64,000 bases of DNA from Escherichia coli. Its GTDB lineage: Bacteria; Pseudomonadota; Gammaproteobacteria; Enterobacterales; Enterobacteriaceae. The stretch lies in NCBI RefSeq assembly GCF_024223415.1, contig NZ_CP100500.1. The stretch is one strand, 5' to 3'. Position 1 is the first letter of the stretch. Every line of letters starts with the position of its first letter. Both the position numbers and the translations under genes were made by a program. The notes under the pieces were generated by a model that was not told where the DNA came from, ran no database searches, and saw only the letters and a program-made list of their open reading frames with translations. Below, piece by piece: positions 16,589 to 19,283 of this stretch.

Positions 16589-16909
16589 TTGCATAAGGCT
16601 ATCAGCTATATCCTGAAACGACCTGATGAGCTGTGCCGTTTTCTGGATGATGGCTCTGTGCCACCGGACAACAATATCTGCGAACGAGCCATCCGCCCGG
16701 TCACGCTGGGGCGAAAGGCATGGTTATTCGCAGGCTCGCTGATGGCCGGCAAACGCGCGGCACAGATAATGAGTCTTCTGGAAACAGCAAAGCGTAATGG
16801 TCTGGAGCCACATGCCTGGCTGACGGACGTACTGACGCGCCTGCCGGAGTGGCCTGAGGACCGACTGGCTGAGCTGCTGCCTCTTGAGGGATTTACCTTC
16901 TCCGGGTGA
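16589..16909 (+). mobile_element. IS66-family transposase (TnpC) C-terminal remnant
   Basis: …PPDNNICERAIRPVTLGRKAWLFAGSLMAGKRAAQIMSLLETAKRNGLEPHAWLTDVLTRL…LAELLP matches conserved IS66 TnpC C-terminus; only about 106 aa present, no intact upstream ORF. Confidence 0.7.
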
Positions 16910-17254
16910 CACAACACCTGCCGTCAGGTCTTTGCACACCGGGCCATGGCCTGCTGTCGGGCGTTGAGCGCCTGACAGCGGGTTATTGAGAAAGTCAGTC
17001 ACCATGCGCCTGGCTGACAGTCAGGACCTGCACGTCAGCGCCTCCCTTACCCTGGTCAGGACTTCACTGCCTGCCACAAACTCCCGTGTCAGTACTTCGC
17101 GGCCTGACGCGCTCACCCTACTCAGTCCTTCAGAGCCCGCCTCCGGTACCTGGCAAGGCAGACGCCGGGGCGCAATAAAATAAATCAACCATCGCAGGGC
17201 GGCGATCATTCGCAACAACCGCTGATGACGAGCCCAGAAACGTGTCAAGACGAT

Positions 17255-17392
17255 TTCACCGGAACCGTTTACCCCAAGCAGAGCGGCAATAGATCCGCCT
17301 GGTACTGTGAAGGATGCATCGCGCAGTGCTTTCTGCCCGTTTCGCCAGGTGACAGTAACGCCATTAACGACAATACCCGCAGATTGCATCAT
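17255..17392 (-). pseudogene. sitB: sitB (Mn/Fe ABC transporter ATPase) 5' fragment, truncated after Walker A
   Basis: MMQSAGIVVNGVTVTWRNGQKALRDASFTVPGGSIAALLGVNGSG then sequence diverges into non-ABC residues; IS66 remnant lies beside it. Confidence 0.6.
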
Positions 17393-18306
17393 TACTTCTC
17401 CCTTTTCCCGGCTTTAATTCCCTGCACCAGCGTACTGGTAGTAACCTTCAGAAGGTCGATATACGTAGGTACCGGGCCGTTTTCTGTGCTCAGGGAATCG
17501 ACATAGAGCACACCGCCGTAGTGTGCGCCGGTTTCACGCGCAACCTGACGCGCTGGTTTATCGGAAACCGTACTCTCACTAAATACCGCTGGGATATTAT
17601 TTTTCTTCACTATATCAACCACTTTACGTACCTGCTGGGGGGTTCCTTGTTGATCGGCATTTATCGGCCACAGATAAAGCTCTTTTAGCCCCAAATCGCG
17701 TGCGAGATAAGAAAAAGCCCCTTCACTGGTGACCATCCATCTTTTATTCTCAGGGAGTTCAGCAATCTGCTTACGCAGGGGGGCAAGGGTTTGGGTAATC
17801 TTGGCTTTATAAGTATCGGCATTACGTTGGTATGTTTTTGCATTTGCCGGATCGTATTTTATCAACGCATCACGAATATTATCGACGTAAATCAAAGCAT
17901 TATCTGGCGACATCCAGGCATGAGGGTTAGGTTTTCCCTCGTAGGGGCCTTCGGTGATCCCTACTGGCGTCACACCCGAAGAGACAATCACTTCTGGAAC
18001 ACCACTGAGATGCTGGTAAAAGCGCTGGAACCACAATTCCAGATTCATACCGTTGGCGAGAATCAGTTGTGCCCCCTGCGCACGTTTAATATCGCCAGGG
18101 GTAGGCTGATACTCATGAATTTCTGCACCGGGCCTGGTTATGGATGAGACTTCTGCAGCATCTCCAGCCACGTTTTTGGCCATATCTGCGATGATGGTAA
18201 ATGTTGTAATGACCTTGAATTTTTCAGTTGCACTCGCCTGAAATGCTATCGAGCAGGTGAGGGCGAGGCACCCCAGGAGCATGGTTACTTTTTTTATTGA
18301 GTGCAT
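17392..18306 (-). CDS. sitA: SitA periplasmic Mn/Fe-binding protein (TroA-family ABC substrate-binding protein)
   Basis: 304 aa with signal peptide; …KFKVITTFTIIADMAKNVAGDAAEVSSITRPGAEIHEYQPTPGDIKRAQGAQLILANG… closely matches SitA as recalled from Salmonella/E. coli. Confidence 0.85.
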   Translation of the reverse strand: MHSIKKVTMLLGCLALTCSIAFQASATEKFKVITTFTIIADMAKNVAGDAAEVSSITRPGAEIHEYQPTPGDIKRAQGAQLILANGMNLELWFQRFYQHLSGVPEVIVSSGVTPVGITEGPYEGKPNPHAWMSPDNALIYVDNIRDALIKYDPANAKTYQRNADTYKAKITQTLAPLRKQIAELPENKRWMVTSEGAFSYLARDLGLKELYLWPINADQQGTPQQVRKVVDIVKKNNIPAVFSESTVSDKPARQVARETGAHYGGVLYVDSLSTENGPVPTYIDLLKVTTSTLVQGIKAGKREK

Positions 18307-18338
18307 AATTCAGTACCTATAGTGAGTAAAATTAGAAC

Positions 18339-18360
18339 AAACATAGCAACGGCTATGTTT
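18339..18360 (-). promoter_or_regulatory. MntR-box-like palindrome upstream of sitA
   Basis: aaacatagcaacggctatgttt: perfect 9-bp inverted repeat AAACATAGC/GCTATGTTT, matches the known MntR operator consensus. Confidence 0.6.
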
Positions 18361-18385
18361 TATAGCATAAGCTATACACAATGCA

Positions 18386-18405
18386 AATGATTATCATTAG
18401 TAATT
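18386..18405 (-). promoter_or_regulatory. Fur-box-like site upstream of sitA
   Basis: aaatgattatcattagtaat resembles Fur consensus GATAATGATAATCATTATC. Confidence 0.5.
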
Positions 18406-19283
18406 CAGACCCCAACACAGGCATTAGGTTGTTTCCTGCTGGCGATGTGGTATTGAGGAAAAGCGTAGGACAGATATCAGGCTTTGAAAGTAAGTGTTAA
18501 GTTAAGCGAACGCCGTATTGACGCTTACCCCAATGGGAGCACCATATTCCATGGCAGGAGTTCATCAACCATGCAGGAAGGCCATTCCGGTAGAACGTTC
18601 AGGATATGGCGCAGATACGCTTCCGGATCGATACCGTTCAACCGACAGGTTCCGATTAGTCCGTACAGCAGGGTACCACGCATTCCCCCCAGGTCAGTTC
18701 ACGAATTAACACAGTGAGCAGTTCTGGTGAAGAATTTTCCAGCGTCATTTTACCGTGACGGAACGAGATCTTTCAGGCACCTGCACTGACAGTGCTGTGT
18801 GAAGGAGTGGATAAAAGTGGAGTAAGAGCCACCATCGGTTCTTTCTGCTCATCCGGAGTGAGCTCTACAGGTAATAATTCAACGCCAGCGCCAGTAAAGG
18901 ATAGTTAATTTTCATATCTTATCCACCTCCCGGATTATTATGCGATGTTAATTAAAGTGGTGAAAGAATGACAGTAATCACAGAAAATAAAAATAACAGA
19001 CAAAAGACTTTTACTTATTTGATCGTAATATTATCTTAATTGTTCTGGTATTTTTTAGTGTTTTTTTGAAATGTCTGTTACGTGAGAAATTTTTTAAATA
19101 ACAGCAGGAAATGACGCATACAGGTTGTGTGACTGAGTGGATTCTGTGTTGGTATAAAAAGCGAACGTTTACAGTTTTGTCAAATTTTTTGATTATGAAT
19201 GTCAGAAATATCTGGTCAATTGATGGTGTCGACTCAACGATAATAGTTTCTTCATTATCTGTTATCGTTTAACGAGGTTTTTT

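Follow-up and report, generated by a model that had tools for sequence, protein, structure and literature searches.

An orphan sitA gene joined through a truncated sitB to an IS66-family remnant, a probable product of island operon decay in Escherichia coli

The 64-kb stretch of Escherichia coli DNA that we analysed (hereafter the window, to which all positions refer) contains a complete sitA gene followed by only the beginning of sitB, which runs directly into the end of an IS66-family fragment. This locus is very probably what remains of a sitABCD Mn/Fe importer operon that was carried by a chromosomal island and decayed through short-homology fusion to an insertion sequence fragment that was already dead. 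SitABCD, known from Salmonella SPI-1, Shigella flexneri, APEC/ExPEC chromosomes and ColV plasmids, and YfeABCD of Yersinia pestis are cluster A-I Mn2+/Fe2+ ABC importers. The window locus resembles them by its full-length SitA, the same upstream region and the same overlap of the sitB start with the sitA stop codon (TAATG). By contrast, it keeps the binding-protein gene alone, the ATPase being cut and both ABC-3 permease genes missing, and it is unable to encode a transporter. The feature is real but represents routine island decay, already annotated in RefSeq as sitA plus a partial sitB pseudogene. Its components are listed in Table 1.

Table 1. Features of the orphan sitA locus and its immediate surroundings in the window.
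Feature	Position	Strand	Basis or remark
RelE/StbE toxin gene fragment	16437..16544	minus	RefSeq annotation of ECCNB12-2, GF60, AR_0085
IS66-family remnant A	16555..17258	plus	tnpC tail of ~110 codons, 3' non-coding tail, most of right inverted repeat
TnpC C-terminal fragment in remnant A	16577-16909	plus	NCBIfam IS66 transposase 299-387 of 387, E 6e-35
Chimeric ORF, 123 aa	17021..17392	minus	~46 aa SitB N-terminus plus ~77 aa IS-tail antisense; ORF list
Putative recombination junction, 7-nt microhomology CCGGAAC	17259..17265	.	Common to IS right end and sitB Walker-A codons
sitB' remnant, codons 1-42 plus 1 nt, sitB-only	17266..17392	minus	Alignments to intact sitB
sitA, complete, periplasmic Mn/Fe-binding protein	17392..18306	minus	ORF list, 304 aa, Sec-type signal peptide
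Native sit promoter/operator region	18307..18489	minus	Zero differences from intact operon L013 in this interval
MntR-type operator, perfect 9-4-9 palindrome AAACATAGC-CGTT-GCTATGTTT	18339..18360	minus	Predicted from sequence
Second, shorter palindrome TATAGC-TTAT-GCTATA	18361..18376	minus	Between Fur-like box and MntR box
Fur-like box ACTAATGATAATCATTTGC	18383..18401	minus	15/19 to consensus GATAATGATAATCATTATC, best register
IS66-family remnant B, ISEc23-like, internal deletion	18490..18900	minus	Different element from remnant A

The surviving gene is intact, in agreement with a preliminary description of this DNA that had called it full length. Its product aligns end to end with Yersinia YfeA (5uxs; E 5e-124, residues 24-297), and H64, H129, E195 and D270 are conserved in this alignment. 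We take these residues, ligand numbering included, to be the metal-ligand positions of YfeA (the His-His-Glu-Asp site of cluster A-I). A product identical to the window SitA gives a Pfam ZnuA match, and the RefSeq-annotated SitA proteins of ECCNB12-2 and GF60 are 100% identical to it. SitA proteins of intact E. coli operons are 97-98% identical, with 5-7 replacements, and that of the intact sitABCD operon L013, where it is followed by a SitB of 275 aa and permeases of 285 and 292 aa, is the same protein. This exact SitA allele occurs in 369 index blocks. Over the interval bounded by position 18520 and the sitA stop codon, only two sites distinguish the window from L013, both synonymous and both in sitA; these differences are specific to the window, the other orphan loci differing from it at the same two sites.

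Upstream of sitA, homology to chromosomal-type and pColV-type sit operons alike stops at 18489. The perfect MntR-type palindrome reported earlier, AAACATAGCCGTTGCTATGTTT, was found exactly at 18339-18360, as the sole match in the window even with three mismatches allowed (0.01 expected), and it is kept in L002, L009 and L022. Its half-sites AAACATAGC and GCTATGTTT are identical to those in AAACATAGCaaagGCTATGTTT, upstream of E. coli K-12 mntH. This K-12 palindrome is reportedly the MntR site mapped there (Patzer & Hantke 2001; Ikeda et al. 2005). Ikeda et al. 2005 reportedly mapped the operators of Salmonella sit as well. The likeness to mntH extends to a Fur-like box just upstream in both cases (TGATAATCATTCTC... 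in mntH). For the window, this box had been placed at 18386-18405; its presence was borne out (15/19), but its best register is shifted to the overlapping interval given in Table 1. Sites scoring at least 15/19 number two in the window versus 0.2 in shuffles, and the core of the box, TAATGATAAnnATTT, is kept in the pColV and SMS-3-5 alleles. The left half of the shorter palindrome varies among alleles, being TATAGC in the window and L002, TATAGG in pColV and TATAGA in SMS-3-5. Unlike those of mntH and Salmonella sitABCD, the predicted operators of the window precede a transcript for SitA and a chimeric junk ORF only. Repression by Fur and MntR has been described for Salmonella sitABCD, and also for mntH (PMC8970401, citing Ikeda et al. 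2005); the reviews searched contain no operator sequences. A simple scan called no sigma-70 consensus site upstream of sitA, and we do not assert a candidate -35/-10 pair found by eye, TTGCAT-16-TATAAA, which agrees with the consensus at only 8 of 12 positions.

Immediately downstream of sitA the operon breaks off. Homology to intact sitB ends at 17251-17265, and the remnant matches the NCBIfam model PRK15056 over positions 1-46 of 274 only (E 2e-20); in ECCNB12-2 and GF60, the RefSeq annotation treats this remnant as a partial pseudogene. Counting the shared 7 nt, sitB' reaches codon 45 plus 2 nt. The truncation had been recognized before, but as falling after Walker A, whereas the break lies inside this motif (GVNGSG/KST), at G46, which implies the loss of the invariant Lys-Ser/Thr. 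Nothing in sitB' amounts to a complete ABC ATPase with its Walker A Lys, Q-loop, signature motif and Walker B. The junction could be defined by a three-way comparison of the window with locus 1 of AR_0085 (L023) and with AR_0085 sitB, as AR_0085 carries both parent sequences intact and in the same orientation. Window positions 15123-17265 match locus 1 contiguously at 97.7% identity, and positions 17251-21568 match the AR_0085 sit locus at 97.0%. Around the breakpoint the window reads ...GTCAAGACGATTTCACCGGAAC/CGTTTACCCC, the IS parent in locus 1 ...GTCAGGACGATTTCACCGGAAC/ATGACGGCGG and the sitB parent, written on the plus strand of the window, ...CGTCGATTTTCCGGAAC/CGTTTACCCC. The shared CCGGAAC belongs to a 15-nt segment (17251-17265) similar to sitB at the equivalent place, and alignment to intact sitABCD, proposed earlier as the way to find the deletion endpoint, showed that sitB-derived sequence ends within 17259-17265. 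Past this point there is continuous IS DNA, not frameshifted sitB; the chimeric ORF spanning the junction also occurs in L017 and L018, as a 123-aa gene call without Pfam matches.

The short sitB' differs from L013, L002 and pColV at 4 positions in 133 bp, versus at most two synonymous differences in the 1,129 bp of promoter plus sitA. Clustered point mutation close to the junction was envisaged as the cause and rejected: the intact sitB genes of SMS-3-5, AR_0085 and others represent the same allele, with 99.4% identity. The sitB' differences are allelic mosaicism, and no more than a single substitution (17278) is peculiar to the orphan lineage.

The preliminary description also identified an IS66 TnpC C-terminal fragment near sitB, in which it was right (Table 1), and set it 350 bp away, in which it was not: the 340 bp that separate the TnpC stop codon from sitB' are the 3' non-coding end of remnant A itself, so that the element directly abuts sitB'. 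With respect to IS66-family elements (tnpA-tnpB-tnpC; ISEc49, ISEc23, ISEc8 and the 2.77-kb element of pB766), remnant A retains the TnpC C-terminus, the tail and the repeat. The search for terminal repeats recovered 22 of the 27 nt of the right inverted repeat at 17244-17265, counting the shared 7 nt and lacking the terminal ATGAC; it recovered no left end, and tnpA, tnpB and full-length tnpC are likewise absent from remnant A. It thus has neither intact inverted repeats at both ends nor 8-bp target duplications. Among E. coli complete genomes, the closest full-length element to remnant A, tail included, is that of plasmid pB766 (about 78% identity), the inverted repeats of which were mapped independently (GTAATGTTCCGG.../...CCGGAATATTAC), and fragments of the remnant-A type in LR-31 and AR_0085 have an intact right terminus, ...CCGGAACATGAC. 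The truncated left side of remnant A is flanked by the RelE/StbE toxin gene fragment, for which the window ORF gave no NCBIfam match; since this fragment abuts the same truncated side in AR_0085, the arrangement predates the sitB fusion.

On the other side of sitA, remnant B consists of the 3' end of tnpC (18513-18681, 169 bp) joined to a tnpA/tnpB piece (18683-18900, 218 bp). At 18490 it retains an intact right terminus, ...CACTTAC, which faces the sit promoter and has the ...CTTAC end of IS66-family elements. This terminus is the only one present and full tnpA, tnpB and tnpC are lacking, so that remnant B is not an autonomous IS; in contrast to the complete elements of the family, remnants A and B are both non-autonomous fragments. 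Remnant B also occurs upstream of intact sitABCD in L002, L013 and AR_0085. A composite transposon with sitA as cargo was rejected, as the two remnants come from different IS66-family elements, both are without transposase and their right ends point inward. Collinearity of the window with ECCNB12-2, its best hit, was rejected as well: local BLAST matched only 14958-21568 and a few other blocks, and the ECCNB12-2 flanks, including mntR and glnHPQ, are absent from the window. Scans of the window for tRNAs and Rfam families found nothing.

Searches with the intact operons L013, L022 and L009 as queries bore out the absence of sitC and sitD within the window, and no sitBCD or aerobactin sequence occurs anywhere in its 64 kb. 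Among 5,426 complete E. coli genomes, 9 have the same sitB'/IS junction, as do additional draft assemblies. Most of the nine are of poultry origin, and they were produced by separate laboratories in various countries (China, Norway, Switzerland, Pakistan, Japan and others). Eight of these nine chromosomes contain one or more additional sitA-sitB junctions, counted with a chimeric query that shows a further copy, not its intactness, and in ECCNB12-2, the one chromosome tested, sitC lies elsewhere on the chromosome. In the plasmids of relatives that were inspected, the first 50 kb of each contain no sit genes. The earlier suggestion that Sit uptake is likely lost must therefore be limited to this locus, which would be unable to import metal because its own ATPase and permeases are absent.

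We propose that, before the fusion, a dead remnant A reduced to the tnpC tail would have been located elsewhere in island DNA, beside an unrelated ABC ATPase gene fragment. Illegitimate recombination at the shared CCGGAAC would have linked codon 45/46 of sitB with a point 5 nt inside the right inverted repeat, removing the rest of sitB, sitC, sitD and anything between the two sites. This would have happened in one single event, after which the island may have been inherited or transferred among mostly poultry-associated E. coli while the far side of remnant A was cut back in differing ways by subsequent IS66-family insertions. A single origin is suggested by the sitB'/IS junction being identical in all nine orphan loci examined, with a far side that ends at 16555, 16768 or 16810. 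That the IS fragment was dead before the fusion is indicated by the left truncation and RelE' neighbour common to AR_0085 and the window. We rejected a one-step 179-kb deletion in an AR_0085-like chromosome: the parent sites are 179 kb apart there and the essential core genes lptF, lptG, valS and holC lie between them, which makes such a deletion impossible in that arrangement.

Two other origins can be envisaged for the junction. An active IS66-family element might have transposed into the Walker-A codons of sitB, the rest of the operon being lost by IS-mediated adjacent deletions. An IS66-family right end does abut sitB', and full ISEc23- or ISEc8-like copies adjoin the remnant in L015 and L019, showing that insertions of this family recur here. 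Yet at the junction the IS end stops 5 nt short of its terminus and no target-site duplication can be identified, and the 7 nt in common with the sitB target are not a feature of transposition. Moreover, the same left-truncated fragment, with intact right terminus, lies beside a different gene in AR_0085 and LR-31, which implies that it was already immobile and located elsewhere; we thus regard transposition into sitB as very improbable. An error of assembly or sequencing, with intact sitBCD really following sitA, has a practically negligible probability as the source of the truncation. IS66-family repeats can in principle mislead assemblers, and we found no other point in favour of this idea; against it, the DNA past the junction is that of the IS, and the junction is the same base for base in nine complete genomes assembled independently of one another and in additional drafts, which argues that no sequencing error hides an intact sitBCD, an objection foreseen when the locus was first described. 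Short-homology fusion to a dead fragment also agrees with IS- and microhomology-associated operon decay in E. coli and Shigella genomic islands, a general and well-known process. The locus has its usual hallmarks, namely a gene fused to a mobile-element fragment, neighbouring pseudogenes, nested IS insertions and a mosaic integrase-bearing island, and nothing distinctive apart from the survivor, sitA, being by chance a virulence marker in wide use.

As the promoter region with its operators, the ribosome-binding region and sitA are untouched, orphan SitA is probably still expressed when Fe/Mn is limiting and delivered to the periplasm, and the predicted control by Fur and MntR would continue; the earlier statement that a regulated binding protein is still made is plausible. 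Given that the sigma-70 scan made no call, this view of expression is based on the identity of the region to that of intact operons. The truncation is recent, promoter and sitA having hardly diverged from the intact operon, so that no selection has to be invoked to explain why sitA is still there. It is unlikely that the gene was kept for its usefulness, be it by supplying Mn/Fe to the SitBCD of a second operon or by buffering periplasmic metal. Such a role would fit the intactness of sitA, signal peptide, four ligand positions and operators across the orphan loci seen, as well as the further sitA-sitB junctions in most orphan-bearing complete chromosomes and the separate sitC of ECCNB12-2. 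Nevertheless, the truncation is too recent for intactness to signal selection, and a second sit operon would bring its own sitA, which would make the orphan redundant. More speculatively, and improbably, a Fur/MntR-controlled orphan SitA might be a working accessory binding protein maintained in poultry-associated E. coli because it increases Mn/Fe capture in the periplasm on behalf of a second SitBCD from another place in the genome, or because it buffers periplasmic metal; if true, it would represent a natural case in which a stand-alone binding protein supplements an ABC importer in dosage or allele.

Our literature search returned nothing relevant on an orphan sitA or on a truncated sitB with IS66. 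The scientific weight of the locus is small, and it stands as a clean, documented example of island operon decay. In the typing of APEC/ExPEC, sitA is routinely used as a PCR or in silico marker of Sit metal uptake. It is included, for example, in the PCR panel of PMC2626276. Loci such as this one would type as sitA-positive yet encode no transporter; for this reason, typing ought to include sitB-D as a requirement or examine the context of each copy.

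The orphan locus, a complete sitA followed by a truncated start of sitB (sitB'), lies in E. coli chromosomal island DNA, of which the segment 14958-21568 shares 99% identity with the complete genomes ECCNB12-2, GF60, CM2 and Br_112_kylling, all poultry-associated. As the preliminary description had stated, sitA is full length: Yersinia YfeA (5uxs) aligns with residues 24-297 of its product (E 5e-124), in which H64, H129, E195 and D270 align with what we take to be the YfeA metal-ligand positions, and the RefSeq-annotated SitA proteins of ECCNB12-2 and GF60 are the same protein. 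sitB starts immediately downstream, overlapping the sitA stop codon (TAATG). Alignment to intact operons places the end of its similarity, against every intact sitB examined, within the Walker A codons (GVNGSG is followed by EIVLT... in place of the KSTLF... of intact SitB), hence inside this motif and not after it as first described. No sitB-distal, sitC, sitD or aerobactin sequence occurs anywhere within the 64-kb window, in agreement with the reported absence of sitCD.

Coordinates of features of the sit locus and its surroundings (window positions)
Feature	Position	Strand	Remarks
UvrD-like ORF	13342-15057	+	571 aa; UvrD-like helicase C-terminal part and ankyrin repeats
Rpn-family gene	15126-16115	+	PDDEXK 'Transposase_31'; C-terminal EGR-type heptad-like repeats (EGRMEGRMEGRAEGRLEGQLEGKLE)
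TnpC fragment of remnant A	16577-16909	+	last 89 positions of the IS66 transposase model
Chimeric ORF	17021-17392	-	123 aa; sitB' frame plus 77 codons of unrelated sequence
Crossover	17259-17265		7 nt CCGGAAC common to both parents
sitA	17392-18306	-	complete ORF, 304 aa
MntR-type palindrome (predicted site)	18339-18360		AAACATAGCCGTTGCTATGTTT
Second, shorter palindrome	18361-18376	-	TATAGC-TTAT-GCTATA; between the Fur-like and MntR boxes, directly upstream of the latter
Fur-like box (predicted site), best register	18383-18401	-	ACTAATGATAATCATTTGC; 15/19 to consensus
Remnant B, IS66-family, ISEc23-like	18490-18900	-	internal deletion; right terminus ...CACTTAC intact at 18490
LPS/lipid-A modification cluster	22282-27075	+	island-borne; polysaccharide deacetylase, GT4 glycosyltransferase, CptA-like phosphoethanolamine transferase, LpxM-like acyltransferase
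Split cptA-like gene	24349-25404, 25417-26016		agrees with strain Ch1 pseudogene annotation
Other Fur-like match	30997-31015		GATCACAATAATCATTATT; 15/19 to consensus
Sugar-type ABC ATPase gene	36840-38180	+	end of myo-inositol cluster (iolA/iolD/iolG, RpiR regulator)
P2-like prophage	38050-55000+		tail sheath, tape measure, baseplate, late control D

The DNA joined to sitB' is an IS66-family fragment (remnant A). Over 16555-17264, the window aligns (78% identity) with the 3' portion of a complete IS66-family element from plasmid pB766; the alignment stops 6 nt short of the terminus of that element, whose inverted repeats were mapped as GTAATGTTCCGG.../...CCGGAATATTAC. The window copy lacks the last 5 nt of the IS end. 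The remnant, initially placed 350 bp from sitB, thus adjoins it directly, the 340 bp after the TnpC stop being IS sequence with no spacer. Close copies in LR-31 (96.5%) and in AR_0085, a strain carrying both parent sequences, end ...GACGATTTCACCGGAACATGAC, beyond which lies an unrelated ABC ATPase gene reduced to a C-terminal fragment. Since the AR_0085 copy shares with the window its left truncation and its RelE' and Rpn neighbours, remnant A was already transposase-less before its fusion to sitB. The Rpn-family gene itself has annotated lengths of 309, 329 and 352 aa in relatives.

On the window + strand, the AR_0085 site of remnant A (locus 1) reads ...GTCAGGACGATTTCACCGGAAC|ATGACGGCGG..., its sitB reads ...CGTCGATTTTCCGGAAC|CGTTTACCCC... 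and the window reads ...GTCAAGACGATTTCACCGGAAC|CGTTTACCCC... at the junction. Because the final 5 nt of the IS end are missing there and the shared CCGGAAC falls within a 15-nt stretch similar to the corresponding sitB sequence, the junction bears the signature of illegitimate short-homology recombination and not of transposition. The window matches locus 1 at 97.7% left of 17265 and the intact sit locus of AR_0085 at 97.0% right of 17251. Both parents have the same orientation in AR_0085, 179 kb apart, with the essential core genes lptFG, valS and holC in between, which rules out a one-step deletion in an arrangement of this kind. Presumably the two island segments lay nearer to each other in the ancestor, in tandem or adjacent islands for instance, but we found no genome with such an arrangement.

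Remnant A and the second IS66-family fragment upstream of sitA (remnant B) are unrelated fragments with their right ends inward, and they do not make up a composite transposon. Homology to sit operons elsewhere (ColV plasmids, common chromosomal type) begins exactly at the 18490 boundary of remnant B, which also precedes intact sitABCD in CFSAN061770, AR_0085 and the comparator L013, and therefore had no part in the truncation. Mutagenesis near the breakpoint might be suspected from the four differences of sitB' against L013, L002 and pColV, compared with at most two in the promoter and sitA against L013. It was rejected: the same allele (99.4% identity) is found in the intact sitB of SMS-3-5, AR_0085 and others, and the differences are ordinary mosaicism of alleles between sit operons. 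The orphan lineage has at most one change of its own, V40L at 17278, which lies 13 bp from the junction.

An exact SitA protein look-up returned 369 index blocks, and nine of the ten loci shown have the identical sitB'/IS junction. The remaining one, L013 (GCA_958304725.1), encodes the same SitA protein, but here sitB, sitC and sitD follow intact, and beyond them lie an ISL3 and a TonB-dependent receptor. Remnant A stops on its far side at 16555, 16768 or 16810, depending on the orphan locus; one junction with several far-side ends implies that the junction is ancestral and that the remnant was trimmed by later IS66-family insertions. Complete ISEc23- or ISEc8-like elements adjoin remnant A in some of them (L015, L019, L012, L016, L020 and L004, at the two cut points 16768 and 16810), and these positions suggest that IS66-family elements preferentially insert into DNA of their own family. 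The junction occurs in 9 of the 5,426 genomes of a complete-genome collection, mostly from chicken.

Both regulatory boxes of the preliminary description were recovered as predicted sites. The MntR-type palindrome is perfect, the sole window match even with three mismatches (0.01 expected), and shares its half-sites with AAACATAGCaaagGCTATGTTT upstream of E. coli K-12 mntH, reportedly the MntR operator mapped by Patzer and Hantke in 2001. Sites as good as the Fur-like box arise 0.2 times per window in shuffles, and its core is kept in the pColV and SMS-3-5 alleles; the only other one in the window lies between the divergent RpiR-regulator and iolA genes, where the DNA is AT-rich, and probably matches by chance. 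The shorter palindrome may not be a second operator, since its left half varies among sit alleles (TATAGG in pColV, TATAGA in SMS-3-5). A simple scan called no sigma-70 promoter upstream of sitA, and -35/-10 elements are accordingly left unassigned. Repression by Fur and MntR is documented for Salmonella sitABCD (PMC8970401). Between 18520 and the sitA stop codon, L013 and the window have at most two differences, synonymous and window-specific, which makes the event too young for an intact sitA to be evidence on selection. Since promoter, RBS, signal peptide and ORF are unchanged, metal-regulated production of SitA plausibly continues.

In ECCNB12-2 (L001/L006, NZ_CP033635.1 3225093-3253425), the ~26-kb orphan-sitA island interrupts the glnHPQ operon by its position between glnH and glnP; an integrase marks one end and a YeeU/CbtA-DUF4942 module the other. 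In AR_0085 (L024), a related integrase lies directly beside ulaD. No tRNA gene is annotated beside the integrase in the examined stretches, which looks unusual for such an island type. Gene order around cadC, yjgR-treR and ulaD-aidB in AR_0085 (L025/L026/L024, 2.78-2.99 Mb) implies a large core-genome inversion between island-bearing sites, with island modules at the breakpoints. The window holds a second truncated ABC ATPase, the sugar-type gene, whose match to its ~500-position profile is confined to positions ~1-400 and which appears cut at ~38055, exactly where homology to the P2-like prophage (~93% identity to prophages of many E. coli genomes) starts. In GF60, the annotation gives the homologue of the UvrD-like ORF as a 2.9-kb UvrD-helicase-domain pseudogene with a frameshift; an upstream disruption is therefore probable in the window copy too.

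The orphan locus cannot encode a transporter, and to this extent the proposed loss of Sit uptake stands. Loss for the cell as a whole is a separate question: a 162-bp probe (sitA end plus sitB'), run on nine orphan-bearing complete chromosomes of other genomes, found two to three match places in eight, which indicates presence and not intactness. In ECCNB12-2, a chimeric probe fusing remnant A to 300 bp of sitC matched two places and remnant A alone one, indicating sitC elsewhere on that chromosome. The preliminary description was accurate as an observation, apart from the Walker A position and the IS distance, and partly right in its interpretation. What the locus shows is routine decay within a mosaic genomic island, and RefSeq already annotates it as sitA, 'manganese/iron ABC transporter ATP-binding protein, incomplete' and 'IS66 family transposase, incomplete'. 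sitA is a standard virulence-typing marker (PMC2626276), and the sole wider relevance of the locus is practical: it types as sitA-positive without a Sit transporter.
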